A stretch of DNA of 32,000 nt. Source: Megasphaera elsdenii DSM 20460 (lineage in GTDB: Bacteria; Bacillota; Negativicutes; Veillonellales; Megasphaeraceae). The position numbers and the translations under genes are program-made. Shown in pieces: positions 2,914 to 30,973 of the stretch. The notes below the pieces were generated by a model that was not told the DNA's origin, ran no database searches, and worked only from the letters and a program-made list of their open reading frames with translations. Location: contig NZ_CP027570.1 of the NCBI RefSeq assembly GCF_003010495.1, forward strand, positions 1,740,001 through 1,772,000. Reading direction: 5' to 3'. Position 1 is the first letter of the stretch, and the number at the start of each line of letters is the position of its first letter.

Positions 2914-2971
2914 TAGTGGCTAGTGGTTAGTGGCTCGTTGTTAGAGAGTGGCTGAAATCTTAAATCTTGAA
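2914..2971 (+). repeat. Heptad array plus core motif copy
   Basis: TAGTGGC TAGTGGT TAGTGGC TCGTTGT TAGAGAG TGGCTGA, then AAATCTTAAATCTTGAA. Lies between the stop at 2907-2909 and the terminator. Confidence 0.8.
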
Positions 2972-3007
2972 GGGACTTACTACATGTTGGTGTGGTAGGT
3001 CCTTTTT
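2972..3007 (+). terminator. Rho-independent terminator of the malic enzyme gene
   Basis: GGGACTTACTAC / GTGGTAGGTCC stem with two G-U pairs, so it folds only on the + RNA. Followed by TTTTT. Confidence 0.7.
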
Positions 3008-3855: not shown

Positions 3856-5214
3856 ATGGAAAATTTAGAGGCGATTGTACAATTGATTGACTCCTGGCTA
3901 TGGGGAAGATGGCTGGTTTTTGTTTTGCTGGCCTTAGGGGTTTTATATACTGTTTCTAACGGATTTATCCAGATTCGCCATTTTGGTTTCATTATTCGCC
4001 GGACCCTCATCGATTCTTATAAGTCCCGTCATGAAGATAAAGGGAATGGATCTATTTCCACTTTCAAAGCGATGATGGTCACACTGGCGGGCAATGTTGG
4101 CGGCGGCAACGTTGTCGGGGTCGCCACGGCTATTTTGTCTGGTGGCATGGGAGCCGTTTTCTGGATGTGGGTAGCTGCCTTTTTCGGCATGGCCTTGAAA
4201 TATGGTGAAATCGTCTTGTCCCAGATGTATCGCGGCAAAGATGAAAACGGTAACCTTCTCAGCGGTCCTATGTACTATATCCGCGATGGCCTTAAAATGC
4301 CCTGGCTCGGCGTCGTCATTGCCGTGCTGATGTGTACGAAAATGATGGGGGCTAACTTGGTACAGTCCAATACGATTTCAGGCATCCTTTATTCGAATTA
4401 CGGCGTCCCGACGTACATGACCGGTGTCGTCCTCATCATCCTGCTTTTATGCATCACTCTGGGCGGCTTGAAACGTCTGGCTAATCTGGCCATGAACCTC
4501 GTTCCGGCTATGTCCATCTTTTATATCGTCATCGGTGTATTAGTTGTCCTGCTGAATATTCAACAGCTGCCGCATGTATTTGTTGAAATCTTTACTCAGG
4601 CCTGGTCTTTTGATTCTGTAGCTGGCGGTACTGGCGGCTATGTTATTGCTAAAGCCATGCAGTACGGGATTGCCCGCGGCATGTACTCCAATGAAGCTGG
4701 GGAAGGGACCGCTCCGTTTGCTCATGGCTGCTCGATTGTACCGCATCCCGTCGATGAAGGAATTACGGGGGTTGCTGAAGTCTTTCTTGATACCATTGTC
4801 ATTTGCAGCATTACGGCTTTTGTAGTCGGCGTCACTGATATGCAGCATTCCGGCAATTCGGCAACAGTATTGGCTCTCAACGCTTTTGGAACCGTCTGGG
4901 AACCGTTGAAACACGCAGGCACATTGGCTCTGCTCATCTTCTGCTTTACGACCTTGATGGGGCAGTGGTGGAACGCCGCCAAGAGCTTTACGTATGCCTT
5001 CGGCAATAAAGTAACGAATGTCGTCAAATACATTTTTCCTTTCTTGTGTCTCGTCGGCTCCTTAGGAAAAATCAATCTCGTCTGGGGCATCCAGGACGTA
5101 GCGATGGGCTTAGTCGTCATCCCTAACATGATTGCCCTGCTCATTCTCTTCCCGCAGGTACGGGCTAAGACAAAGGAATATTTCAGTGATCCGAAATACT
5201 ACGACCATAAATAG
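3856..5214 (+). CDS. Alanine/glycine:cation symporter (AGCS family)
   Basis: 452 aa polytopic membrane protein. N-terminal region and GGMGAVFWMW are typical of sodium:alanine symporters. Starts 1 nt after the upstream stop. Confidence 0.85.
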   Translation: MENLEAIVQLIDSWLWGRWLVFVLLALGVLYTVSNGFIQIRHFGFIIRRTLIDSYKSRHEDKGNGSISTFKAMMVTLAGNVGGGNVVGVATAILSGGMGAVFWMWVAAFFGMALKYGEIVLSQMYRGKDENGNLLSGPMYYIRDGLKMPWLGVVIAVLMCTKMMGANLVQSNTISGILYSNYGVPTYMTGVVLIILLLCITLGGLKRLANLAMNLVPAMSIFYIVIGVLVVLLNIQQLPHVFVEIFTQAWSFDSVAGGTGGYVIAKAMQYGIARGMYSNEAGEGTAPFAHGCSIVPHPVDEGITGVAEVFLDTIVICSITAFVVGVTDMQHSGNSATVLALNAFGTVWEPLKHAGTLALLIFCFTTLMGQWWNAAKSFTYAFGNKVTNVVKYIFPFLCLVGSLGKINLVWGIQDVAMGLVVIPNMIALLILFPQVRAKTKEYFSDPKYYDHK

Positions 5215-5270
5215 CGGATATCACAGGCAGTTTTGTCTATCCCATCGTAATTTGTAAGGTAGCGTTGAAG

Positions 5271-5292
5271 TTAAATTTAAAGCCATCCGCTA
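5271..5292 (-). repeat. Core-motif copy of the 3'-UTR element (minus-strand reading GCGGATGGCTTTAAATTTAA)
   Basis: Near-identical to the core at 22231-22251 (GCGATGGCTTTAAATTTCAAA). Confidence 0.65.
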
Positions 5293-5310
5293 ACCAATTA
5301 AAAAAGTTTT

Positions 5311-5390
5311 TGTTCGTAGTTTATCGTTCATCGCGATGGATGGATATTTTTAATCCCATACGACAAACGATGAACGACCTACGATCAACG
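5311..5390. repeat. Palindromic heptad element (two convergent arms around the core CGCGATGGATGGATATTTTTAAT)
   Basis: The right arm on the minus strand reads CGTTGAT CGTAGGT CGTTCAT CGTTTGT CGTATGG, exact 7-nt phase. The left arm GTTCGTAGTTTATCGTTCATCG is its imperfect complement. Confidence 0.75.
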
Positions 5391-5396
5391 TAAAAA

Positions 5397-5426
5397 GAGG
5401 CTGTCTTTTGCGGCAGTCTCTTTTTT
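5397..5426 (+). terminator. Rho-independent terminator of the symporter gene
   Basis: GAGGCTGTC-TTTTGC-GGCAGTCTC, 9 bp including 2 G-U pairs, so + strand only. Followed by TTTTTT. Confidence 0.75.
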
Positions 5427-7870: not shown

Positions 7871-8690
7871 CCCATTGATTTTGCAGGCCCTTCAGGAAGA
7901 CATTACGAGTGAAGACGTGACGACTAATGCCATTTTGCCGAAAGACTGTCAGGGTGAAGCGGAGCTCCTGTGCAAACAAGATGGCATCATTGCCGGCCTC
8001 GATGTCTTTGCCCGGGCCTTTACGCTGTTGGATGACAAGGTGTGGTTTGAATTCTTTACGAAAGACGGCGATGAAGTCCACAAAGGCCAGAAGCTGGCTA
8101 AAGTTGTCGGCAGTATGCAGGCCATCTTATCGGCCGAACGGGTAGGACTCAACTATTTGCAGCGCATGAGCGGCATAGCGACTTATACCCATCAGGTCGT
8201 ATCCCTGCTGGAAGGAACTGGGATTACCCTCGTCGATACGCGCAAGACGACGCCGAATATGCGGGTCTTTGAAAAATATGCTGTCACGGTTGGCGGCGGT
8301 AAGAATCATCGCTATAACCTGTCCGACGGCGTCCTCCTCAAGGACAATCACATCAGCGCTGCCGGTGGCGTAGCCAAGGCCGTTGCCTTGGCCAAAGCTT
8401 ATGCGCCTTTTGTCCGTAAAATCGAAGTCGAAACGGAAACGTTGGACATGGTCCGCGAAGCCGTCGAAGCCGGCGCCGACATCATCATGCTGGATAATAT
8501 GAGCCACGACATGATGAGAGAAGCGATAGCCCTCATCGACGGCCGGGCTGAAACGGAATGTTCCGGCAACGTGACCAAAGAAAATATTGCCGCCTTGGCC
8601 GATATCGGCGTCGATTACATCTCTAGTGGCGCCTTGACCCATTCCGCGCCTATCCTGGACTTATCCCTGAAACACCTTCATCGGATATAG
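7839..8690 (+). CDS. nadC: Nicotinate-nucleotide pyrophosphorylase (carboxylating)
   Basis: Motifs DTRKTTPNMR and HRYNLSD. I prefer ATG 7839 or GTG 7836 (GGGAG at 7824-7828) over the track start at 7812. Overlaps the nadB end. Confidence 0.88.
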   Translation: MNSVTMKLQADPLILQALQEDITSEDVTTNAILPKDCQGEAELLCKQDGIIAGLDVFARAFTLLDDKVWFEFFTKDGDEVHKGQKLAKVVGSMQAILSAERVGLNYLQRMSGIATYTHQVVSLLEGTGITLVDTRKTTPNMRVFEKYAVTVGGGKNHRYNLSDGVLLKDNHISAAGGVAKAVALAKAYAPFVRKIEVETETLDMVREAVEAGADIIMLDNMSHDMMREAIALIDGRAETECSGNVTKENIAALADIGVDYISSGALTHSAPILDLSLKHLHRI

Positions 8691-8760
8691 TGGCCCGTAG
8701 TTCGTGATTCGCAGTTCATGGCTCGTAGGGGCGACCACGTGGAACACCGTTTTGTTGCTT
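8688..8760 (+). repeat. Heptad array copy; the nadC stop codon is the first TAG of the array
   Basis: TAGTGGC CCGTAGT TCGTGAT TCGCAGT TCATGGC TCGTAGG GGCGACC, with CGT/CGC/CAT phased every 7 nt at 8696, 8703, 8710, 8717 and 8724. Confidence 0.8.
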
Positions 8761-8899: not shown

Positions 8900-9130
8900 A
8901 TGTATGGCGAATGGAAAAGATTATGGCAGAAAATTTCCGCGAATGGAAAATGCTGCAGCAGTGTCAACTACTCCCGACTAAAGTCGGGAGCTTGTAAGTC
9001 GGAACTACATAGGTACTAACGACATCTAAAAGATGTCTTCCTAAATCCGCCTACATCATCGGGGGGGCTGACAACACCCGCTTTGCTAAGGAGTTTACTC
9101 CGAAGCAGTTGTTATTCTTTCATAACGAGG
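8900..9130 (-). ncRNA. Predicted TnpB omega-RNA (reRNA) region, spanning the tnpB 3' end and RE; extent is approximate
   Basis: Position follows established TnpB biology. Stem-loops seen on the element strand: GACATCT-N3-AGATGTC (9021-9037) and CTCCCGAC-N4-GTCGGGAG (8971-8990). Confidence 0.4.
8971..8990 (-). repeat. RE subterminal hairpin of the IS element
   Basis: CTCCCGAC-TAAA-GTCGGGAG, a perfect 8-bp stem. The loop and flank match the LE hairpin. Confidence 0.6.
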
Positions 9131-10321
9131 ATGGTTATCTCCGGAAATCCACATAGTTCCGAGGAGCTGAATATTCATAGCTCCGATACGGTCATCGTTA
9201 GATCTGTAACCACACTGGCAACGATATAAGTGTTTGTGATGGTCACGGTTTTCTTTGTGGATAGTACCGCATTTGGGACAACGTTGAGAGGTATACTTAG
9301 CAGATACCTTCAGAACTTCGGAACGATTTTCATGAGCCTTATAGGTCAGGAATTGCTCCAACTGATAGAACGCCCAGCTGCGCAGGTCGTAATTTTGTTT
9401 AGCCGTTTTTGAAAGATGGGACTCTTCGAAGCTAACACCGGTCAGATCTTCAAGCACAAACAGCGTATCTTTGCCGTATTTTTCAACGAGTGTCTTAGAA
9501 ATCTGATGGTTTACATCAGACATCCAACGGTTCTCTCGTCCAGAAATGGCTTTGAGTCTACGCTTTGCTGATTTTGTACCTTTAGACTGGAGCTGACGGC
9601 GGACTTCCTGAAATTTATGGCGTTTAGTAGCCATCTTCTTACCAGAGACGAATTCAGTTTTGCCCTGTTCGTCGTAACTAACAGTAAGAAAACGTAATCC
9701 GCGGTCAATACCGACAACATGACGGACGTTTTCTTTCTGAAAATCTTCGACAGCTTGGGTTACGGGAATGTGGAGATACCATAACCCTTTGAGTTCGACC
9801 AGTTTTGCTGTTCCAAGGTCATAAGCGCCATCAAGGTATTCAGCGAAATGTTCGCCCTCAAAAGTGCATTTGGTTCTTTTGCCGAGTGTATTGATAGATA
9901 GGATTTGACCATCATCAACGAAACTGTAATCTCGGTTACGGACCAAATCAGCTTGCGGACGAGTAAAGAATATCGGCTTCCAAAGCCATTCCAATGTCTT
10001 GGTAATGCGTTGCCAGTTGCCATTCTCATCCTTATATCTGTAAGGATTTTGGAAGAGCTGTTGTTTTACCGTTTTATATCTGGCAATCGTCGTCTTGATA
10101 GAAGACTGGGCTAGCTGCGATTTCAGACCGAACTGGCTGCGCAGGTCACTGTACAGCTCTCTGTTGAGACTTTGGTAGGTCATGTTAAATCGGTGGTCGA
10201 ATATGTACTGCGACACGAAGTTACAAGCCTGACGGTATTGTTCAGTCATCTGACGGAACAGCGTCTCTTGTTCGGGAGTAGCGTGTATACGAAGTTTTAT
10301 TGTTTTAGTTAGGTTAGACAT
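9095..10321 (-). CDS. tnpB: TnpB (OrfB_IS605) RNA-guided endonuclease
   Basis: 408 aa. RuvC D (VVGIDRG), E (FVLEDL) and D (NDDRIGAMNI) all present. Zinc finger CPKCG...CQCG. Confidence 0.9.
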   Translation of the reverse strand: MSNLTKTIKLRIHATPEQETLFRQMTEQYRQACNFVSQYIFDHRFNMTYQSLNRELYSDLRSQFGLKSQLAQSSIKTTIARYKTVKQQLFQNPYRYKDENGNWQRITKTLEWLWKPIFFTRPQADLVRNRDYSFVDDGQILSINTLGKRTKCTFEGEHFAEYLDGAYDLGTAKLVELKGLWYLHIPVTQAVEDFQKENVRHVVGIDRGLRFLTVSYDEQGKTEFVSGKKMATKRHKFQEVRRQLQSKGTKSAKRRLKAISGRENRWMSDVNHQISKTLVEKYGKDTLFVLEDLTGVSFEESHLSKTAKQNYDLRSWAFYQLEQFLTYKAHENRSEVLKVSAKYTSQRCPKCGTIHKENRDHHKHLYRCQCGYRSNDDRIGAMNIQLLGTMWISGDNHPRYERITTASE

Positions 10322-10365
10322 TTTTTCACCTGCCTTTCTAAAATCTATACTACTTCATCAAAATT

Positions 10366-10374
10366 ATTATATCA
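10366..10374 (-). promoter_or_regulatory. Extended -10 promoter element for tnpB
   Basis: Minus strand reads TGATATAAT (TGnTATAAT), about 45 nt upstream of the ATG. Confidence 0.4.
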
Positions 10375-10420
10375 TAATTTTTTTGCTAAAAGTCTATTAT
10401 TTATTATTGAAAGGAGGGGA

Positions 10421-10465
10421 GGTGCGGCTCCTCTCATGACTAAAGTCACGAGTCTCCGCCGCACC
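10421..10465 (-). repeat. LE subterminal imperfect hairpin of the IS element
   Basis: GGTGCGGC...GCCGCACC outer stem. Inner stem is CTCGTGAC-TTTA-GTCATGAG (element strand) with one mismatch. Confidence 0.6.
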
Positions 10466-13968: not shown

Positions 13969-14250
13969 ATGTCACGCAAAAATCGGCGCAAAAAAGCCAG
14001 CCATACTGCGGCTGTTCCGGAAGGGACGACGGCAGCGGCACAGCCTAAAAAGAAGAAGGGACCTGTCCACGGGCTCGATACCCGTACCTGGGTCTTGTAC
14101 CTCGTCGGCTTTGCCGCCCTGGCCTGGTCGTATTTCGTCTTGTTTACCCGCAACTGGTCGGACGCAGGTTTTGCCTTTACCGTCCTGGTTACGGTTCTCT
14201 GGCCCTGGTCTCTCTATAGGAACTGGAAGAAGGGCCCTAAAAAGAGGTAA
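13969..14250 (+). CDS. Hypothetical small membrane protein with basic termini
   Basis: 93 aa. AAGGAGG RBS at 13956-13962. Two hydrophobic helices flanked by Lys/Arg-rich tails. Codon bias looks coding. Confidence 0.55.
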
Positions 14251-14255
14251 CGCTT

Positions 14256-16378
14256 ATGGATATGTCCCATTACAATAAAGATTACGATACGTCTCATCCC
14301 TTTCACGTCGTCGCCCCGTATGAACCGATGGGCGATCAGCCCGAGGCCATCGCCTCCCTGGCGGAAGGCGTCCGTTCCGGCCAGTGGGCCCAGGTCCTCG
14401 TCGGGGCTACCGGTACCGGGAAGACCTTCACCATGGCCAAGCTCATCGAAGCCGTCCAGAAACCGACCTTGGTCATCGCTCACAACAAGACCTTGGCAGC
14501 CCAGTTGTGCAGCGAATTTAAATCCTTCTTTCCCGATAATGAAGTCGGCTACTTTGTCAGCTATTATGACTTCTATCAGCCTGAAGCCTATATTGCCTCG
14601 ACGGATACGTATATCGAGAAAGATGCGTCCATCAACGATGAAATCGATAAATTGCGCCACTCGGCGACGATGAGTCTCTTTGAACGGCGCGATGTCATCA
14701 TCGTCGCTTCCGTTTCCTGCATCTATGGCTTAGGTGACCCGGAAGATTACAGCGAACTCGTCGTATCCCTGCGCCTGGGGCAGGAAAAATCGCAGGAAGA
14801 GATCTTGCATAAGCTCGTCGATATCCAGTACAGCCGCAGCGACATGAACCTCGAACGCGGGACTTTCCGCGTCCACGGCGATACGATCGAAGTCTTTCCG
14901 GCGGCTTTCGACAACTCCGTCATCCGCATCGAAATGTTCGGCGACGAAATCGACCGCCTGACCGAAGTCGATGTCCTGACCGGCGAAGTCATTGCCGAAC
15001 GCAAGCACGTCGCCATCTATCCGGCCAGCCATTATGTCACGACCAAGGACAAGATGGAACGGGCCTTGGGACGATCCGTCAGGAACTGGACGAACGGCTG
15101 AAAGTGCTGAAAGACGGGGGCCACTTGCTGGAAGCACAGCGATTGGAACAGCGCACGCGCTACGATATGGAAATGATGGAAGAAATGGGCTATTGCTCAG
15201 GCATCGAAAACTATTCGCGCCATCTGGCCGGTCGCAAGCCCGGTCAGGCGCCGTATACGCTTCTCGATTATTTCCCCGATGATTTCCTCATCCTCGTCGA
15301 CGAATCGCACGTCACCCTGCCCCAGCTGCGGGCCATGTATGCCGGTGACCGGTCGCGCAAAGAAAACCTCATCGAATACGGTTTCCGCCTGCCGTCGGCC
15401 TTGGACAACCGGCCTTTGAAATTTGAAGAATTTGTCGAACGCATCAATCAGATCGTCTACGTCAGCGCTACGCCAGGGCCCTATGAAATGGAAGTCCAGA
15501 CCAATCTGGCCCAGCAGATCATCAGGCCGACGGGCCTGTTGGACCCGAACGTGGAAGTCCGTCCCATTGCCGGCCAGATGGATGACCTGTTGGGGGAAAT
15601 CCGCCAGCGTACGGAAAAGGACGAACGCGTCCTGGTGACGACGCTGACCAAGAAGATGGCCGAAGATTTGACGGACTACCTGAAAGAAATGGGCGTCCGC
15701 GTGCGCTATCTCCATTCGGATATCGCTACCATCGAACGGGCCGACATCATCCGCGACCTGCGGGCCGGCGTCTTCGACGTCCTGGTCGGCATCAACCTCC
15801 TGCGCGAAGGCCTGGATATGCCGGAAGTCTCGCTGGTAGCCATCCTCGATGCCGATAAGGAAGGCTTCCTGCGGTCGGAAACGTCGCTCATTCAGACCAT
15901 GGGCCGGGCAGCGCGGAACGTCAACGGCACGGTCATCATGTATGCCGACAAGATCACCGATTCCATGGCCAAGGCTATGGAAGAAACCCAGCGCCGCCGG
16001 GAAATCCAGGATGCTTATAATAAAAAACATCATATTACGCCGAAGTCGGTCAAAAAAGACGTCGTCGACCTCATCGAACTGACGAAAGTCGCTGAAGATG
16101 AAGCGGCCTATGGCAGCCAGAAAGGGAAGAAAGGCGGCAAGATGACCCGCGAAGCCCTGAATAAGGTCATCAAGACCATGACCTTGCAGATGAAGGAAGC
16201 GTCGAAGAATCTGGAATTTGAAAAAGCGGCGGAGCTGCGCGACCGCTTAGGGGAACTGCGCCAGCAGCTGGCCGACATGAGCCACGACGACACCCTGCCC
16301 AAAGACATGCAGGGTGCCGACATGCCCAAGCGCCGCTATCGCCGCAAGATAAAGCGGCCTGACGCGAAAAGAAAATAG
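14256..16378 (+). pseudogene. uvrB: Excinuclease ABC subunit B, split by a 1-nt frameshift near 15068-15071
   Basis: ORFs 14256-15101 and 15104-16378 together make a full UvrB ([18 protein letters not shown] domain [13 protein letters not shown]). The downstream frame already reads [27 protein letters not shown] from 15071. Confidence 0.85.
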
Positions 16379-16420
16379 TCATGCAAAGGTTTTTGTCGGC
16401 ATACGCCATCCCTTTTATCC

Positions 16421-16510
16421 TATCGTTTGTCGTGGGTCGTTCATCGTTTACCGTGATGGATTAAATTTTTGAACATTTCCGTTGTAGGGGTCGCCGTGTG
16501 GGCGACCCGC
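16421..16510 (+). repeat. Heptad array + core + GTAGGGG/GC-hairpin copy in the uvrB-uvrA spacer
   Basis: CGT occurs at 16424, 16431, 16438, 16445 and 16452. Core CGTGATGGATTAAATTTTTGAA (16452-16473). GTAGGGG, then GGGTCGCC-GTGTG-GGCGACCC (16488-16508). Confidence 0.8.
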
Positions 16511-16552: not shown

Positions 16553-19408
16553 ATGGAAGATAAATATATTGTCATTAAAGGTGCGCGTCAGCACAATTTA
16601 AAGAACATCGATGTCAAGATTCCCCGGGACAAGCTCGTCGTCTTTACGGGCCTGTCCGGTTCGGGCAAGTCGTCCCTGGCTTTTGATACGATTTACGCCG
16701 AAGGCCAGCGCCGCTATGTCGAATCTCTGTCGGCCTATGCCCGGCAGTTCCTGGGCCAGATGGATAAGCCTGATGTCGATTACATTGAAGGCCTGTCGCC
16801 GGCTATTTCCATCGACCAGAAGACGACGAGCCGCAATCCCCGGTCGACCGTCGGGACGGTTACGGAAATCTACGATTACCTGCGCCTGCTCTATGCCCGC
16901 GTCGGCGAAGCGTATTGCCCGAAATGCGGCAAGCCCATCCGCCAGCAGACTATCGAGCAGATGGCCGATGCTGTCATGGCCCTCGGCGAAGGCGAAAAGG
17001 TCATGGTCATGGCCCCTGTCGTCGACGGCCGCAAGGGGACCCATCAGAAACTCCTGGCCAAATTGGTCAAGGACGGCTACGTCCGCGTCCGCGTCGACGG
17101 CGAAGTCTACCTTTTGTCCGACGATATTCCCTTGGATAAGAATAAGAAGCATACCATCGACGTCATCATCGACCGCCTGGTCATCAAGAACAGTATCTTG
17201 ACGCGCCTGACTGATTCTTTGGAAACGGCGGCTAAACTGGCCGATGGCATCGTCCACATTTTCCGTATGGCTACGAAAGAAGTCCTGACTTTCAGTCAGC
17301 ATTTCGCCTGCCCGGACTGCCACGTCAGCCTGCCGGAAATCGAACCGCATCTCTTTTCTTTCAACAGTCCCTTCGGGGCCTGCCCGGCCTGCTCCGGTAT
17401 CGGCAGTACCATGGAAGTCGATGCCCGCCTCGTTTTGCCGGACCGCAAGAAATCCTTTGCCGACGGCGCTGTAGCGGCTCTCAGCAGTAATCCCGATTCG
17501 TGGTTCATGCGCCAGCTCGGCGGTCTCCTGCGGCCTTATGGCTTTACCCTGGATAATTGTTACGACGACTTGCCGGAAGAACTGCAGGAAAAACTCATGG
17601 ACGGTTCTGACGACCTGTGCGTCTTTGAATATGAGAACCTGCGCGGCCAGGTAAAGCAGTTCTCGACGACTTTTGAAGGCGTCCTGCCCATGGTCCGCCG
17701 CCGCTACCGCGAGGCTTCATCGGATATGATGCGCGACCAGTTCGGACAATTCATGACCGTCAAGCCCTGTTCGACCTGCCATGGCACGCGCCTGCGCCAC
17801 GAAGCGCTGGCCATCAAGATAGGCGGCTTGAACATCGCTGAATTGACGGATTTGCCTGTCAGCGATATGATTCCCTTCTTCGATAGCTTGAAATTGACGG
17901 AAAAGCAGCAGCTCATTGGCAAACAGATTTTCAAGGAAATCAAGGCCCGCCTGAATTTCCTGCAGACCGTCGGCCTCGATTATCTCACTCTGTCGCGGAC
18001 GGCCGGGACCCTGTCTGGCGGCGAAGCCCAGCGAATCCGCCTGGCGACCCAGATCGGTTCGGGCCTGGTCGGCGTCCTCTACATCCTGGACGAACCGTCT
18101 ATCGGCCTGCATCAGCGGGATAACGACAAGCTCCTGGAAGCCCTCAAGCGCCTGCGCGACCTGGGCAATACACTCATCGTCGTCGAACACGACGAAGATA
18201 CCATGCGGGCTGCCGATTATATCGTCGATATCGGTCCGGCTGCAGGGGAACACGGCGGCACCATCGTCGCCCAAGGGTCGGCCGAAGATATCATGGCTTG
18301 CTCTCAGTCACTGACGGGCCAGTACCTGAAGGGGACCAAGTACATTCCCGTCCCGAAAGTACGGCGGCTGGGGAGTGGGAACTTTTTGGAAATCATCGGC
18401 GCAGCCGAACACAATTTAAAACATATAAACGTGTCCATCCCCATCGGGACCCTGACTGTCGTTACAGGCGTATCCGGGTCGGGTAAGTCGACCTTGGTCA
18501 ATGAAATCCTGTACAAGGGCATGGCTGAGGCCGTTTACGGAACGCCGCACCGGCCGGGCAAGTTCAAGGCCTTGAAAGGCGTCGAATACATCGATAAGAT
18601 TATCAACATCGACCAGTCGCCTATTGGTCGGACGCCGCGGTCCAATCCGGCCACGTATACGGGCGTCTTCGATGCCATCCGCCAGCTCTACAGCCAGACG
18701 GCAGAAGCCAAGGTGCGCGGCTACAAAGCCGGCCGGTTCAGCTTCAATATCAAAGGCGGCCGCTGTGAAGCCTGCAAGGGTGACGGCATCATCCGCATCG
18801 AAATGAATTTCCTGCCAGATGTCTACGTTCCCTGCGAAGTCTGCCACGGTGCCCGCTATAACCGGGAAACGCTGGAAGTCAAATACAAGGGCAAGAATAT
18901 TTCCGACGTCCTCAACATGACCGTTGACGACGCCTGCCAGTTCTTTGAAAATATCCCGCGCATCGTCAATAAGTTGAAGACGCTGCAGCAGGTCGGCCTG
19001 GGCTACATCCGCCTGGGCCAGCCGGCGACGACCTTATCCGGTGGTGAAGCCCAGCGGGTCAAACTGGCGACGGAACTGTCCAAGCGCAGTACCGGCCGGA
19101 CCCTGTATATCCTCGATGAACCGACGACGGGCCTGCACACGGCGGACATCCACAAGCTCATGGACGTCTTGCAGATGCTCGTTGACGGCGGCGATACCGT
19201 CGTCGTCATCGAACACAATCTGGACGTCATCAAGACGGCAGACTATCTCATCGACCTCGGTCCCGAAGGTGGTGCCGGCGGCGGGACCGTCGTCGCCACG
19301 GGAACGCCGGAAGAAATCTGCCAGGTACCAGCTTCGTATACGGGAAAATTCCTCAAGCCCGTCCTGGAACGCACCAAGGCCCTCATGGCCGGCGAGAAGG
19401 GAGAATAA
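16553..19408 (+). CDS. uvrA: Excinuclease ABC subunit A
   Basis: 951 aa. Two ABC modules ([18 protein letters not shown]; LSGGEAQR twice) and zinc-finger Cys clusters. Confidence 0.95.
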
Positions 19409-22031: not shown

Positions 22032-22193
22032 ATGGATAAGTACGAATGCAGCATTTGCGGTTATATTTATGATGAAGCTGAAGGCGACGCAGACAACGGC
22101 GTTGCAGCTGGCACGAAATTCGCTGATCTCCCGGCAGATTGGGTATGTCCGACCTGCGGCGCAGACAAAGACGCTTTCGTAAAAATGGACTAA
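22032..22193 (+). CDS. Rubredoxin
   Basis: 53 aa with two CxxCG knuckles (CSICGY, CPTCGA). AGGAGG at 22017-22022 supports ATG 22032 rather than the track start at 22011. Confidence 0.92.
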
Positions 22194-22202
22194 TTTTTGA
22201 AT

Positions 22203-22293
22203 GTGTGAAGTTTGATGTATGACGTTTGAAGCGATGGCTTTAAATTTCAAACCATCCACATCAAACATCAAACTTTTAACTTCAAACTTAAAA
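22203..22293. repeat. Best copy of the heptad element: 13 consecutive 7-mers forming an imperfect palindrome
   Basis: GTGTGAA GTTTGAT GTATGAC GTTTGAA GCGATGG CTTTAAA TTTCAAA CCATCCA CATCAAA CATCAAA CTTTTAA CTTCAAA CTTAAAA. Confidence 0.85.
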
Positions 22294-22294
22294 A

Positions 22295-22325
22295 GAGCTT
22301 GTCGCATATGCGGCAAGCTCTTTTT
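22295..22325 (+). terminator. Rho-independent terminator of the rubredoxin gene
   Basis: GAGCTTGTCGC-ATAT-GCGGCAAGCTC, then TTTTT. Confidence 0.8.
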
Positions 22326-22414
22326 ATTGACAATCTTCCGGAAGCACGATACAATGATTACTGTTAGACATAAATATTCGTCATGTTTCACATGATTTTG
22401 CAGGGGGTGCTTCT

Positions 22415-22881: not shown

Positions 22882-23022
22882 ATGGCAAAACACATCATTA
22901 CGATCAACACAGAATCGATCCAGAAGACGGCACAGCACGCTGGCTGCAGCGAATGTCAGACGTCCTGCCAGTCCGCTTGCAAAACTTCTTGCACCGTTGG
23001 CAATCAGATCTGCACAAAATAA
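22882..23022 (+). CDS. SCIFF ('six cysteines in forty-five residues') ribosomal peptide precursor
   Basis: 46 aa: MAKHIITINTESIQKTAQHAGCSECQTSCQSACKTSCTVGNQICTK. It carries the family's GCxECQTSCQSACKTSCTVGNQ core with 6 Cys. RBS AGAGAGG. Too short for the ORF track. Confidence 0.9.
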   Translation: MAKHIITINTESIQKTAQHAGCSECQTSCQSACKTSCTVGNQICTK

Positions 23023-23036
23023 GTTACGTGAAGGAA

Positions 23037-23071
23037 AAGGGGCGTCGCTCGCGCGGCACCCCCTTCTTTTT
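23037..23071 (+). terminator. Intra-operon hairpin with T-run between the precursor and maturase (probably a partial terminator)
   Basis: AAGGGG...CCCCTT outer stem with a GC-rich interior, then CTTTTT. Confidence 0.5.
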
Positions 23072-23091
23072 GTATGGAGGAAACATTATTC

Positions 23092-24525
23092 ATGGCTGAA
23101 ATTAAACCAATGATTCATAAATACTGTCAGAACGGCACTTACATGCTCCTCGACGTCAACAGCGGCATCATCAACGTCATCGACAAGATGACCTACGATG
23201 TCCTCGACGTCTATGACGGTACCAATAAAGAAGTTGTCTATCAGGCTTTTGCCGGGACTTATGACAAAAAGGATTTAGATGAAACCCTGGGGGAATTGGA
23301 CGGGCTCATCGAAAAGGAAATGCTCTTCGCACCGATGACGGAAAACTTCAAGGTCGTTGCCGAAGAAGAACCGGTCATCAAGTCCTTATGCCTGAACATC
23401 GCGCACGACTGCAACCTGCGCTGTAAGTACTGCTTTGCCTCTCAGGGCGATTATGATACGCACAAGCGGGAACTCATGAGCTTCGACGTAGCTAAACACG
23501 CCGTCGATCTGCTCATCAAGAGCACCGAAGGCAAACGCCAGCACTGCGAAATCGACTTCTTCGGCGGCGAACCGCTGATGAACTTCGGCGTCGTCAAGCA
23601 GACCATCGAATACATCCGGGAACAGGAAAAGATCCACGATAAAGTCTTCAAACTGTCCCTGACGACGAACGGCATGCTTCTCGACCCAGCCAAGGTCAAG
23701 TATTTGACGGATAACCACATCAGCCTCATCCTCAGCCTCGACGGCCGTCCGGAAGTCCACGACCGCATGCGCCCCGACGCCGGTGGCCACGGCTCCTATA
23801 AGACCTGTGCGGACAATCAGGTCTATGCTGCCAAGCATCGCAATGGTGAAGAATATTACGTCCGCGGGACGTATACAAAATACAACCTCGATTTTACCAA
23901 AGACGTAGAACACATGGCCGACCTCGGCTTTGAAGGCCTGTCCATGGAACCTGTCGTCGGTGACGATCTGTCCTATGCCATTACGGACGACGATTTGCCC
24001 CGCATTTACGAAGAATATGACCGCCTGGCTGATTTCTACTTGAAGCGTATGGATGAAGGCCGTCCCTTCATTTACTATCATTTCATCATGGATCTCTACC
24101 GCGGTCCCTGTATCGCCAAGCGCCTGCGCGGCTGCGGTGCCGGTCATGAATACATGTGTGTCGTCCCCAACGGCGATATCTATCCGTGCCATCAGTTTGT
24201 CGGCCAGGACGACTACGTCATCGGCAATGTCTATGACGGCGTGACCAATACGGAACTGCCGCCGCTCTTCCGCGACATGCACGTCCTCAACAAGCCCATC
24301 TGCTGCGACTGCTGGGCCAAGTTCTTCTGCAGCGGCGGCTGCCATGCCAACAATATCAAGTACGGTGGCAATATCCAGACGCCGTATGAACTGAGCTGCA
24401 AGATCCAGAAGAAACGCATCGAATGTGCCATGTACATCCAGGCTGTCCTGGCCATGCGCGGCCAGAAAGCCCGCCTCTTCGGCGATCCCGAAGAAAACTG
24501 TGAAGGATGCGGCGCCTGTGAATAA
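23092..24525 (+). CDS. Radical SAM/SPASM thioether-forming SCIFF maturase
   Basis: CNLRCKYC (CxxxCxxC) and a C-terminal SPASM Cys cluster (CCDCWAKFFCSGGC). Sits directly after the SCIFF gene. GGAGGA at 23076-23081 favours ATG 23092. Confidence 0.88.
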   Translation: MAEIKPMIHKYCQNGTYMLLDVNSGIINVIDKMTYDVLDVYDGTNKEVVYQAFAGTYDKKDLDETLGELDGLIEKEMLFAPMTENFKVVAEEEPVIKSLCLNIAHDCNLRCKYCFASQGDYDTHKRELMSFDVAKHAVDLLIKSTEGKRQHCEIDFFGGEPLMNFGVVKQTIEYIREQEKIHDKVFKLSLTTNGMLLDPAKVKYLTDNHISLILSLDGRPEVHDRMRPDAGGHGSYKTCADNQVYAAKHRNGEEYYVRGTYTKYNLDFTKDVEHMADLGFEGLSMEPVVGDDLSYAITDDDLPRIYEEYDRLADFYLKRMDEGRPFIYYHFIMDLYRGPCIAKRLRGCGAGHEYMCVVPNGDIYPCHQFVGQDDYVIGNVYDGVTNTELPPLFRDMHVLNKPICCDCWAKFFCSGGCHANNIKYGGNIQTPYELSCKIQKKRIECAMYIQAVLAMRGQKARLFGDPEENCEGCGACE

Positions 24526-29984: not shown

Positions 29985-30007
29985 TGTACAGAGATTCAGG
30001 CGGGCCG

Positions 30008-30068
30008 CCTTTCAGGACGGCCCCTACGATGCAGCCAACAGGCCACTAGCCACGAACCACTAGCCACT
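30008..30068 (-). repeat. Heptad array + GTAGGGG/GC-hairpin copy; the lgt stop codon lies inside the array
   Basis: Minus strand reads CAGTGGC TAGTGGT TCGTGGC TAGTGGC CTGTTGG CTGCATC GTAGGGG CCGTCCTGAAAGGCGGCCC. Confidence 0.8.
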
Positions 30069-30848
30069 GATTTTTTCATCCACATTCCCCTTGAACTGTA
30101 GAACGATGAAAATGACCAGAGCGATGACAAAGGCGATGACGCTAGTCATCTGAGCCGATTTCAAGCCTAATGTCAGGTTGACGTAGTCGCCGCGGAGAAA
30201 TTCCAGGAAGAACCGTTCGACGGCGTAGAGCATGACATACAGGCAGAAGACCTGGCCCTTCTTGTGGGGGAAGCAGCTGTACAGGAGGAGGGCGACGAAG
30301 ACTAATACGTCGGCCTGGCCTTCCCAGATTTCGGCCGGCCACAAGGGCTGACTGCCGTAGGTGTGATAAGCCAGCGTCGTGTCGGGATAGACGATGCCGA
30401 AGTCACCGCCTGTAGGATGGCCGAAGGCGTCGCCGTTCATGAGATTGGCCATGCGGCCGATGGACTGGCCCAGGATGATAGCCGGTGCCAGGAGGTCGGC
30501 AAAGGCCCAGGTGTCGATGTGATGGTATTTGGTATACACGATGCCGGCGATGGCGCCGAAGAGCAGGCCACCCTGGATGGCCATGCCGCCCTGCCAGACG
30601 TAGGGGATTTCTGCCAGGTGGTTGTGGTAGTACGGCCAGTCGAAGAAGAAGACGTCCCACAGCCGGCCGCCGACGATGCCTGACAGGCCGCAGTACATGG
30701 TGAAATCAAAGATGTGGACGTGCCAGCCCCGGCCGTCGTGCTTCATGATATAGTAAGCCGTGATACCGGCAGAGACGATGCCCAGCATGAACAACAGCCC
30801 GTAAGCCCGGATCGGGAAAGAACCGATAAAAAATAGATATTGATGCAA
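30060..30848 (-). CDS. lgt: Prolipoprotein diacylglyceryl transferase
   Basis: Motifs GGRLWDVFF and GRMANLMNGDAFGHPT. I prefer TTG 30848 (AAGGGG RBS 9 nt upstream) over ATG 30884, which overlaps a divergent promoter. Confidence 0.85.
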   Translation of the reverse strand: MHQYLFFIGSFPIRAYGLLFMLGIVSAGITAYYIMKHDGRGWHVHIFDFTMYCGLSGIVGGRLWDVFFFDWPYYHNHLAEIPYVWQGGMAIQGGLLFGAIAGIVYTKYHHIDTWAFADLLAPAIILGQSIGRMANLMNGDAFGHPTGGDFGIVYPDTTLAYHTYGSQPLWPAEIWEGQADVLVFVALLLYSCFPHKKGQVFCLYVMLYAVERFFLEFLRGDYVNLTLGLKSAQMTSVIAFVIALVIFIVLQFKGNVDEKISG

Positions 30849-30973
30849 TATAAAACACCCCTTTGTTGTGGTATAATGAAACAATGTGAACAGAACCTGA
30901 ATAGGTTCACGGTTACCATAGAATTATACAGGATTGAAGAGTTTTTTCCAATCCTCATGAGGAGCAAATGACG

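Follow-up and report, generated by a model that had tools for sequence, protein, structure and literature searches.

Rubredoxin locus and its heptad element

This work concerns an intergenic element built largely of 7-nt units, here called heptads, that lies between the rubredoxin gene of Megasphaera elsdenii DSM 20460 and its terminator, and the family of dispersed repeats to which it belongs. The stretch analysed, hereafter the window, comprises 32,000 nt of contig NZ_CP027570.1 (positions 1,740,001 to 1,772,000), and all coordinates given are those of the window. Both the 53-aa rubredoxin (22032-22190; Pfam PF00301) and the alanine:cation symporter (3856-5211) are identical to proteins encoded in M. 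elsdenii genomes, including HE576794.1 (DSM 20460) and CP027569.1. The window holds genes for aldehyde dehydrogenase, malic enzyme, GDPD, the alanine symporter and nadABC, a TnpB insertion and mutY, in that order, followed by NA37, uvrBAC, DUF3298, rubredoxin, SCIFF and its maturase, sufCBDSU and lgt, while a scan for tRNA and tmRNA genes found none. The element and its immediate surroundings are made up as follows.

22032-22193, + strand: rubredoxin gene, 53 aa, with the stop codon TAA at 22191-22193; the element begins at the next base
22194-22232, + strand: left GT-rich arm, a TTTTT run (22194-22198) and then GAATGTG TGAAGTT TGATGTA TGACGTT TGAAGC
22233-22256, no strand assigned: AT-rich 24-bp dyad core GATGGCTTTAAATTTCAAACCATC, the hallmark of the family, near-identical on both strands (profile E value 6e-8 on each strand)
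22257-22289, + strand: right AC-rich arm CACATCAAACATCAAACTTTTAACTTCAAACTT, nearly free of G, about five heptads of the type CATCAAA or CTTCAAA
22290-22326, + strand: intrinsic terminator with an A-tract, an 11-bp stem GAGCTTGTCGC / GCGGCAAGCTC and a T-tract (-25.8 kcal/mol)
22327-22355, + strand: promoter-like site of the next gene, TTGACA-17-TACAAT (11 of 12 positions), marking where the rubredoxin transcription unit ends

The initial annotation of this locus described thirteen back-to-back heptads; there are in fact about five heptads, a 28-nt centre with no heptad repeat, and about five heptads more. With a G+T fraction of 0.68, the left arm was detected at period 14 by Tandem Repeats Finder (22196-22229) and as a lag-7 autocorrelation segment (22188-22234), and because it carries TGA every 7 nt it closes all three reading frames. 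The right arm has a G+T fraction of 0.29 and was detected at period 7 (22258-22293). The two arms pair with each other, the RNA folding z-score being -5.0 for the + strand and -5.9 for the - strand. The terminator behind them is of a 'CTGTCGC' type common to most core-bearing copies, and although missing from the list produced by the promoter and terminator scan, it was confirmed by folding.

Heptad periodicity in the window

All of the sequence strings quoted in the initial annotation were found in place, and its central claim, a dispersed, noncoding family with a 7-nt period in positions expected of 3' untranslated regions (UTRs), is borne out by three approaches that agree. Tandem Repeats Finder reported repeats of period 7 or 14 at 91-117, 2914-2944, 22196-22229, 22258-22293 and 30042-30068. 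A lag-autocorrelation scan of the whole window gave seven to eight segments at lag 7 and seven at lag 14, every one of them intergenic, against zero or one segment at each of the lags 4, 5, 8, 10, 11 and 13, which are multiples of neither 3 nor 7. The lag-7 segments are 79-127, 2899-2955, 5349-5401, 16409-16464, 22188-22234, 22239-22302 and 30024-30079, and 8677-8731 is a segment at lag 14. Finally, the 2,441 nt of intergenic DNA contain six lag-7 arrays, whereas 300 shuffles that kept the dinucleotide composition averaged 0.01 +/- 0.11, and the core motif GATGGNTTTAAATTT has five matches with up to two mismatches, against 0.26 expected. The lag specificity, the shuffle tests and the excess of cores together establish that both the periodicity and the repeated core are real, and in the window both stand well above the level of shuffled intergenic sequence.

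Arrays occupy seven of the 14 window spacers of at least 30 nt and, counted by inspection, seven of the eight spacers of at least 100 nt that follow a gene end. Across all loci collected here, with genes called by a codon-usage model, none of some 40 arrays falls within a predicted open reading frame (ORF) and 23 of 62 spacers bear an array. That the repeats are chance or low-complexity sequence, a misread array of clustered regularly interspaced short palindromic repeats (CRISPR) or a coding repeat can be dismissed, since the AT-rich spacers are all that speaks for it, whereas the shuffle tests and lag-7 specificity refute chance, the arrays are never inside ORFs and a 7-nt period cannot encode a single-frame repeat, and CRISPR would need unique spacers and a longer period. 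No match to Rfam was found in the window at the gathering score, and hits at E values up to 1 were sub-threshold hairpin and terminator noise; BLAST searches of the PLSDB plasmids and of GenBank phages with the elements likewise returned no match.

The remaining copies in the window are these.

91-117, - strand: TAGTGGN array, read as four CACTAAC units on the + strand, directly past a TAA stop codon; terminator at about 116-148
2914-2971, + strand: TAGTGGC/T array (2914-2948) with a degenerate core TGGCTGAAATCTTAAATCTTGAA, followed by a terminator at 2969-3007
5236-5306, - strand: decayed element with arm remnants and a core at 5271-5293, GCGGATGGCTTTAAATTTAAC on the - strand (profile E value 1.5e-4); its fold as a hairpin is not significant
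5313-5391, + strand: TCGT-type palindromic element with left arm TTCGTAG TTTATCG TTCATCG, centre CGATGGATGGATATTTTTAATCCCAT and right arm ACGACAA ACGATGA ACGACCT ACGATCA ACG; fold z-scores -3.1 and -4.1, with a terminator behind it at 5392-5426 (-19.6 kcal/mol)
8688-8750, + strand: heptads after nadC, TAGTGGC CCGTAGT TCGTGAT TCGCAGT TCATGGC TCG, the first TAG of which is the nadC stop codon; REP-like end GTAGGGGCGACC at 8725-8750
16412-16510, + strand: uvrB-uvrA spacer, with TCGT heptads at 16420-16457, a degenerate core at 16455-16475 and a hairpin at 16484-16508, GTAGGGGTCGCC-GTGT-GGGCGACCC
29999-30071, - strand: 3' end of lgt, with a TAGTGGC/TCGTGGC array at 30031-30071 and then a hairpin at 30028-29999, GTAGGGGCCGTCC-TGAAA-GGCGGCCC; the lgt stop codon (30060-30062) falls within the array

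Every copy in the window lies between a stop codon and the next terminator or gene, as had been proposed. The unit itself is more diverse than the single type T[A/C]GTNNN proposed at the outset, as at least three to four types occur (TAGTGGY, TAGTTTG, TGAWGTT and TCGTNNN). Periodic arrays were confirmed at the further loci that had been listed, with the qualification that the portions at 30000-30030, 8725-8750 and 16484-16510 are GC-rich GTAG hairpins and not heptads.

Architecture of the family

A search of 185,579 species genomes with the core pattern GATGGNTTNAAATTTNNANCCATC returned 22 stretches. Heptads flank every one of the thirteen that belong to M. elsdenii, M. intestinihominis and two uncultured Megasphaera species; the other nine are scattered over unrelated phyla, have no heptads and look like chance matches. 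The core is therefore described here as clade-restricted in the sense of the genomes sampled. Exact cores number one to five per species-representative genome, and a profile hidden Markov model (HMM) built from 13 copies added five imperfect cores in the same loci. From the density of arrays in the loci collected, a genome is likely to carry hundreds of them. Recurrence of the core within the window was supported by the HMM at 22226-22263 (E value 6e-8) and 5271-5293; those at 16452-16473, 5332-5354 and 2947-2971 have degenerated, and what identifies them is not their score but where they sit, in the middle or at the end of heptad arms.

Alignment of 20 copies with MAFFT revealed, next to the core, a conserved and partly irregular 32-nt arm, AGTTTGTAGTAYGGAGTTTGTAGTTTGTAGAA, which contains a nonrepeat TAYGGAG unit and ends outward at a sharp edge, (T)AT|AGTTTG, beyond which the upstream flanks are unrelated. 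The second arm varies among these copies, being the reverse complement of TAGTGGY, TAGTTTK or TGATGTT arrays, and the A-tract and terminator stem (...CTGTCGC...GCGACAG...) are again alignable. Arms are thus modular, and loci L003, L022, L031, L037 and L041 combine two arms of unlike type that are poorly complementary. Accordingly, the claim that the two halves are imperfect reverse complements describes the rubredoxin copy well and is no property of the family: the arms are mirror-oriented but often of unlike unit type, Watson-Crick palindromic positions range from 16 to 33 of 43, and, when 18 copies were folded, about half exceeded their shuffles (z below -4) while those with chimeric arms had z-scores of roughly -1 to -2. 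On these grounds, a hairpin of RNA or DNA was ruled out as a general conserved feature.

Some arrays are without an AT-rich core; these abut directly on one another (L012:716-777) or end in phase at a GC-rich hairpin with GTAG, the hallmark of repetitive extragenic palindromic (REP) sequences. Such hairpins occur at 8725, 16484 and 30028 (- strand) in the window and at many more places in other loci. A full unit consists of a T-run, GT-rich heptads (T[A/C]GTKKN or TGAWGTT), a centre, mirror AC-rich heptads, an A-run and an intrinsic terminator. Two kinds of centre occur, the AT-rich dyad of 24 bp, GATGGYTTTAAATTTWAARCCATC, and a GC-rich REP-type GTAG hairpin.

One copy departs from the 3' position. 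In three Megasphaera species (L029:300-480, L032:2660-2850 and L040:2330-2520) a core element is placed behind a TATAAT-like box and ahead of the selD start, so that the rule of placement after stop codons, valid throughout the window, does not extend to this 5' leader of the relatives. The selD genes of these species have an in-frame TGA at the position expected for selenocysteine. Conservation of the core at selD across the three species is uninformative, since the flanks are equally conserved. Two further modules were seen beside core elements in Megasphaera spacers (L026, L029, L032, L034, L040, L041 and L042), namely a terminator-like hairpin with the conserved loop CACGAAGGTTTYTGCCATCATG and an internal GAAGG...CCATC that echoes the core stem, and a GGAGAGCTGTCAGCGAAGCTGACTGAGAGG segment.

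Polarity and stop codons

That both orientations relative to the gene occur was noted from the start and is correct, but a strong rule of direction lies beneath it. Whichever strand they occupy, paired Megasphaera arrays run from GT-rich through the centre to AC-rich in a proportion of 10:1, and in the lone exception a terminator hairpin separates the two arrays. Similarly, where an array touches or overlaps a stop codon (14 cases), the sense strand is the GT-rich one in 13; the array at 91-117 is the exception, and its CACTAAC unit carries TAA nonetheless. Two simple explanations of the periodic trinucleotides were rejected. A three-frame stop in every array is ruled out as a general feature by the closure of all frames in 20 of 43 arrays on the GT strand versus 10 of 43 on the AC strand, the TCGT units having no stop, and periodic CTA or CTG as primase start sites is ruled out by the TGAWGTT and TCGT units, in which they are lacking.

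Variation among strains and relatives

Twenty syntenic loci from strains and metagenomes, which jointly span the whole window and 6 kb upstream, were compared. The arrays differ between strains by whole heptads.

Array at 91-117: 4, 5 or 6 units (+7, +14 nt)
Array at 2914, after malic enzyme: 1, 3, 4 or about 9 units
Array at 30042, 3' end of lgt: 4, 5 or 7 units (+7, +21 nt)
uvrA leader: 2 or 4 units (14 nt)
After nadC: a difference of 35 nt; L015 and L017 are without about 35 nt (five heptads)

Besides these stepwise changes, whole alleles are exchanged. The rubredoxin element is the same in eight of ten loci except for one or two single-nucleotide differences in the core, and in the other two (L002 and L003) the segment from the stop codon to the T-tract is swapped whole, terminator included, for one of the same architecture with other arms, while the flanks are identical. 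Three unrelated alleles of the uvrB-uvrA spacer occur in the clade, the first with a TCGT arm, a degenerate core and a GTAG hairpin, the second with a GC segment and CATCAAA heptads, and the third, found in a relative with 90% UvrC identity, with a full TCGT palindrome. This spacer measures 81-174 nt in M. elsdenii strains and more in the 90% relative, with heptad elements inside it.

Heptad arrays are thus present in the relative at 90% UvrC identity, whereas none was detected at lag 7 in 22 kb of syntenic DNA from each of the two outgroups on which array status rests, M. stantonii (81% UvrC identity) and a relative at 85%. In both, the uvrB-uvrA gap is 1-3 nt and a plain terminator stands behind rubredoxin, and GTAG hairpins are present. 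The array-free relatives argue that the heptad system arose in, or invaded, the lineage after its split from them. Since then it has been inherited at orthologous sites, and it continues to change by slippage-like steps and exchange of alleles.

At the 3' end of lgt (30060-30884) the C-terminus of the protein follows the repeat allele, with 262 aa where the stop codon lies inside the TAGTGGC array and 273 aa where the gene enters 10-nt repeats, CTGCTTTTCA (L004, L009 and L010, about 17950-18040). In the nifU-lgt spacer of L002 and L003 (about 17990-18070), an insertion of about 75 nt is nested in the loop of a GTAG hairpin whose uninterrupted counterpart in the window lies at 29999-30028, and four TAG heptads separate the nifU stop codon from a second GTAG hairpin, which the window does not have.

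Heptad arrays in phage contigs

Three consecutive TAGTGGN units were found in 114 stretches of IMG/VR, against 18 for a period-8 control with the same hexamer. These stretches add up to 946 kb with a G+C content of 0.33-0.71, in which lag 7 yields 512 arrays, lag 8 yields 59 and lag 5 yields 48. In contigs such as L085 and L157, which encode portal and terminase proteins, almost all gene gaps contain a pair of arrays, with unlike centres and the same succession of T-run, GT arm, centre and AC arm; L139 carries up to 26 arrays in 13.6 kb, and L141 and about 110 more loci are also rich in arrays. The GT-then-AC order prevails here by 68:5, and the units include TAGTGGN, TAGTTGA, TAGTCAC and CAGTTTT. 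The Megasphaera core itself gave two chance matches in IMG/VR, with no heptads beside them. With arms present and the Megasphaera core absent, these contigs indicate that the arms are a widespread kind of heptamer array and that the core is clade-specific. A 'YAGT' signature common to the Megasphaera units and to the cyanobacterial and TAACTGA repeats discussed below was considered as a universal hallmark and dropped, as AGT is in phase in 36 of the 222 viral arrays that lack TAGTGG.

Comparison with known repeat systems

Intergenic heptamer repeats have been noted in cyanobacteria since 1990, and as the most over-represented long simple repeats of bacteria since 2007. The view that the family belongs to no known repeat class therefore had to be abandoned, as tandem intergenic heptanucleotide repeats are a described class and three of the window loci also carry hairpins with the REP hallmark. 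Its exclusion of CRISPR, BOX and enterobacterial repetitive intergenic consensus (ERIC) elements was upheld; CRISPR repeats measure 24-48 nt and alternate with unique spacers, against a 7-nt period and no spacers here. The described heptamers include the short tandemly repeated repetitive (STRR) sequences of Calothrix and Nostoc, Mrazek's long simple sequence repeats (LSSR), GGGAATC of Xanthomonas and TAACTGA of the Beggiatoaceae; they vary in length between strains or species and have no established function, the LSSR of heptamer type being in many genomes the class with the strongest over-representation, and polymerase slippage or binding by ribosomal protein S1, cold-shock proteins (Csp) or CsrA having been proposed (PMC4692102; PMC4679880). 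No description of Megasphaera together with 'heptanucleotide' or REP, nor of these heptamer units as repeats, was found in the literature library searched.

With STRR and LSSR (Calothrix, Nostoc and Anabaena; Xanthomonas GGGAATC and Nostoc GGGGAYT) the Megasphaera arrays share tandem 7-nt units, several types per genome, intergenic enrichment, inverted pairs, and length and sequence change between close relatives. Unlike them, they occur in a Negativicute, use the units TAGTGGY, TAGTTTG, TGAWGTT and TCGTNNN, mirror a 24-bp dyad core or a GTAG hairpin with a fixed GT-then-AC polarity, and adjoin stop codons and terminators. Strict STRR are CCCCAGT, TTGGTCA and CAACAGT in heterocystous cyanobacteria, and both host and units differ here. 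The TAACTGA repeats of marine Beggiatoaceae, cyanobacteria and Bacteroidetes are comparable in being intergenic heptamers that carry a stop and are closed to read-through in the forward orientation, and their patchy distribution suggests horizontal spread (MacGregor 2015, PMC4679880). A Megasphaera array can also sit just 5' of a ribosome-binding site, as in the uvrA leader allele of L004 and L010. In contrast to the Megasphaera family, TAACTGA has one unit type, lies mostly directly 5' of start codons, and has neither predicted structure nor a dyad centre; the Megasphaera units differ from it, and their position is mainly past stop codons.

REP sequences, bacterial interspersed mosaic elements (BIMEs) and REPINs, which are associated with RAYT (TnpA-REP) genes, resemble the family as mosaics of short spacer modules after genes, with GC-rich GTAG hairpins, nested insertion within a hairpin loop and, as predicted for Megasphaera, co-transcription in 3' UTRs. 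An imperfect GC-rich palindrome of 20-40 nt behind GTAG or GTGG describes 16484-16508 and 30028-29999 and, weakly, 8725-8750, but not the AT-rich core and heptad arms. Heptad arrays are foreign to REPs, and the Megasphaera hairpins are single and not inverted pairs. Outgroup L044, which has GTAG hairpins but no heptads, demonstrates that the two are separable. Correia (nemis) elements of Neisseria are co-transcribed with neighboring genes, and their hairpins are processed by RNase III. They are transposable elements of the miniature inverted-repeat kind (MITEs) comparable to the Megasphaera units as palindromes of about 100-150 bp with an AT-rich centre, and the conserved Megasphaera arm begins with (T)ATAGT, like Correia. 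The Correia repeat TATAGTGGATTAAATTTAAACC (PMC5039591) resembles Megasphaera TTAGCGGATGGCTTTAAATTTAAAACC, and window positions 16457-16467, GGATTAAATTT, are exact over 11 nt, although this is a lead only and may be chance, as the stretch is short and AT-rich. What sets Correia elements apart is their ends, inverted repeats of a fixed 26 bp bordered by a TA duplication, where the Megasphaera arrays have expandable heptads.

Another system with a 7-nt period is found at the RNA level. HutP binds UAG triplets spaced 4 nt apart in the Bacillus subtilis hut mRNA, hence with a period of 7 nt. Its site is a single regulatory one, made of two same-strand sets of three NAG triplets in a leader of the terminator/antiterminator type, whereas the Megasphaera arrays have mirror arms, lie in 3' UTRs and use several unit types; the NAG spacing is present in the TAG-type arms, but the second arm reads CUA and the TCGT units have no NAG. 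On all these comparisons we file the family under heptanucleotide tandem repeats as a kind, having at least three head-to-tail 7-nt units, an intergenic excess and whole-unit variation between close relatives, and not as strict STRR, REP, MITE, HutP sites or TAACTGA repeats.

Interpretation and alternative explanations

On balance, and with moderate confidence, we read the family as a mosaic repeat specific to this clade, which spread in the form of a non-autonomous element and often took a terminator with it. On this reading its heptad arms are hypermutable and it is tolerated at gene ends, where it would be transcribed in 3' UTRs. Of the three roles that the initial annotation had offered, a small non-autonomous mobile or dispersed element fits best, as the same core and conserved 32-nt arm are found in numerous unrelated places across four Megasphaera species and are missing from the outgroup regions examined. 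The centre with its adjacent arms spread to many intergenic sites in the clade ancestor, possibly in the manner of a MITE, REP or BIME, and the 'CTGTCGC' terminator would often have moved along with it. The arms would then have behaved as hypermutable heptanucleotide repeats, the observed growth, loss and exchange in 7-nt steps being attributable to slipped-strand mispairing or unequal recombination, and hypermutability would explain why copy number and unit type vary between strains while the flanks stay conserved. Units in the window are predicted to be transcribed within the 3' UTR. There, UAG or UGA every 7 nt in the GT-rich arm would, for about half of the arrays, stop ribosomes in all frames as they reach the element's edge; complementary arms would form a long imperfect hairpin just 5' of the terminator, likely a 3'-end stabilizer or an RNase III substrate as in REP and Correia; and the G-poor AC arm could serve as an unstructured run ahead of the terminator or of the next ribosome-binding site. 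Any such host function is regarded as secondary, and the family mainly as selfish or neutral DNA at gene ends.

Several points weigh against this interpretation. Transcription in 3' UTRs is deduced from the positions of genes, promoters and terminators. A hairpin is not a general trait, since no more than about half of the copies show significant folding, and three-frame closure is confined to 20 (GT strand) and 10 (AC strand) of the 43 arrays. Orthologous sites are occupied in all three species at each of the two sites compared, which gives no sign of current mobility. Nor did the strain comparison yield the presence or absence polymorphism with precise boundaries that would be expected of a mobile element: no clean pair of filled and empty sites with a target-site duplication was found, and the strains differ by allele replacement and heptad insertions or deletions alone. 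An autonomous insertion sequence (IS) with the same ends was not seen among about 200 kb of Megasphaera DNA, in which no dedicated search was made; no transposase for the family was identified in the loci covered, and the only transposon gene in the window is TnpB. Moreover, slippage leaves unexplained both the restriction to a few GT-rich unit types and the strict GT-centre-AC polarity, in Megasphaera and in unrelated phage contigs alike (68:5). As the opposite polarity would form a hairpin equally well, something else must set the direction. What slippage and hairpins alone leave unexplained keeps two other ideas alive, namely a strand-specific protein reader and a machinery shared between phyla.

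According to the first of these, which we judge unlikely, the arrays are RNA docking platforms for an oligomeric RNA-binding protein that reads one motif per 7 nt and exerts global control, after transcription, at the ends of genes. The reader could be a HutP-like hexamer ((UAG-N4)x3), a TRAP-like ring, ribosomal protein S1 or cold-shock proteins (about 7 nt each). TAG-type arms have exactly the HutP spacing, NAG or TGA is kept within arrays while other positions vary, unlike arm types in one element still hold TAG and CTA in register, and the strict polarity and sense-strand bias at stop codons suit a strand-specific reader of RNA better than a neutral hairpin; S1, Csp and CsrA have also been suggested for the TAACTGA repeats (PMC4679880). 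On the other hand, TCGT-type units such as TCGTGGC have no NAG or stop trinucleotide, and at least four unit types would demand several readers or a very loose one. A tuned binding site would hardly be expected to range from one to about nine units between strains, as one site does, the sampled close relatives are array-free in the syntenic regions examined, and the second same-strand site of HutP is missing, the other arm being CUA.

Little credence is given to a purely mutational origin, in which arrays arise in place at a short direct repeat beside a hairpin as the replicative polymerase of this lineage slips by 7 nt for preference (Mrazek's hypothesis), with neither dispersal nor function. 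Changes in multiples of 7 fit it, as do arrays at the foot of hairpins whose heptads grade into the stem (TTCGTAG into GTAGGGG; GGTTAGCGGATGG into GATGG), arrays that start with the stop codon of the gene itself (nadC), the over-representation of heptamers in many bacteria, and the sixfold excess of period-7 over period-8 TAGTGG arrays in viral contigs (114 vs 18). Against it stand the 24-bp core and the 32-nt irregular arm (TAYGGAG), whose conservation, sharply bounded, at numerous unrelated loci testifies to copying and not to independent origin. Slippage, furthermore, predicts no GT-then-AC rule, and arrays are missing from the examined regions of relatives whose replisome is presumably much the same.

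Very unlikely, in our opinion, is that the arms are heptad iterons in double-stranded DNA for cooperative binding by a ribbon-helix-helix or nucleoid-associated protein, a dimer of which would nucleate on the AT-rich core and spread along the arms, or alternatively that the centre is a tyrosine recombinase site. The precedent would be the binding of 7-bp WATCACW repeats, direct or inverted, by the omega repressor of pSM19035. The core forms a dyad of 9 + 6 + 9 bp between mirror-polar arms, as expected of a symmetric DNA-bound complex, and arm complementarity is not required, which suits the chimeric copies. Most arrays, however, have no AT-rich core and their unit sequences are diverse; they are linked to stop codons and terminators and not to promoters, and only CATCAAA bears any likeness to WATCACW. 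An origin of small RNAs, either 3'-UTR-derived or stand-alone, from the elements as precursors is more improbable still: a stable hairpin with a terminator would yield a discrete, stable 3' fragment and one copy lies past a TATAAT-like box upstream of selD in three species, yet there is no Rfam family, the copies are hypervariable between strains, no single-stranded seed is conserved and half of them are unstructured.

Beyond the dispersed mosaic repeat that we favor for Megasphaera, heptad arrays with fixed polarity might represent an intergenic 'punctuation' across phyla (the M. elsdenii clade, STRR, TAACTGA and many phages), made or used by one horizontally transferable machinery, an idea that we advance tentatively and consider doubtful. 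Such a machinery could be a strand-specific heptad-reading protein that binds RNA or single-stranded DNA, or a transposase or nuclease that reiterates 7 nt at a hairpin foot, the latter possibly related to the enzyme that moves the Correia elements of Neisseria. If so, the recent gain by M. elsdenii, set against the absence from the M. stantonii regions examined, would make the machinery findable through comparison of gene content. That unrelated phage contigs carry TAGTGG arrays of like polarity suggests that the phenomenon is wider than recognized.

M. elsdenii offers an unusually clean case for the study of intergenic heptamer repeats, being a cultivable rumen and gut bacterium in which about half of the spacers bear arrays, while relatives at 81-85% UvrC identity are array-free in the syntenic regions examined, and having many sequenced strains that differ by whole heptads. 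The arrays are ready markers of the variable-number tandem repeat (VNTR) type for strain typing, they reshape protein C-termini, as where the lgt stop codon lies inside an array, and they can put spacers into operons, as between uvrB and uvrA.

Other features of the window

Two features of the window were considered in connection with the arrays and set aside. A 93-aa ORF at 13969-14250, in the NA37-uvrB interval, has lysine-rich ends, a hydrophobic middle and no significant Pfam match, and is present in the M. elsdenii clade while both outgroups are without it at that position; as a small membrane protein with no nucleic-acid-binding signature, it was ruled out as a partner protein of the heptads. 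A TnpB-only element of the IS200/IS605 type (about 8963-10465; tnpB at 9095-10321, - strand), with OrfB_IS605 and Cas12f-like TNB domains, is found in the window and five loci and is missing from three, and interrupts a 50-aa ORF after CTGCAGCAGT; its end hairpins, GACTAAAGTC, are unrelated to the heptad family, and a link between the two was rejected.

The gene for a SCIFF peptide (PF13165) and that for its radical-SAM maturase (22882-24525) are found two genes past rubredoxin. Lastly, uvrB (14256-16378) has GGG at window positions 15064-15067 where four other M. elsdenii loci have GGGG, and is thereby split into the frames 14256-15101 and 15104-16378, which reflects either a strain-specific frameshift or a sequencing error.

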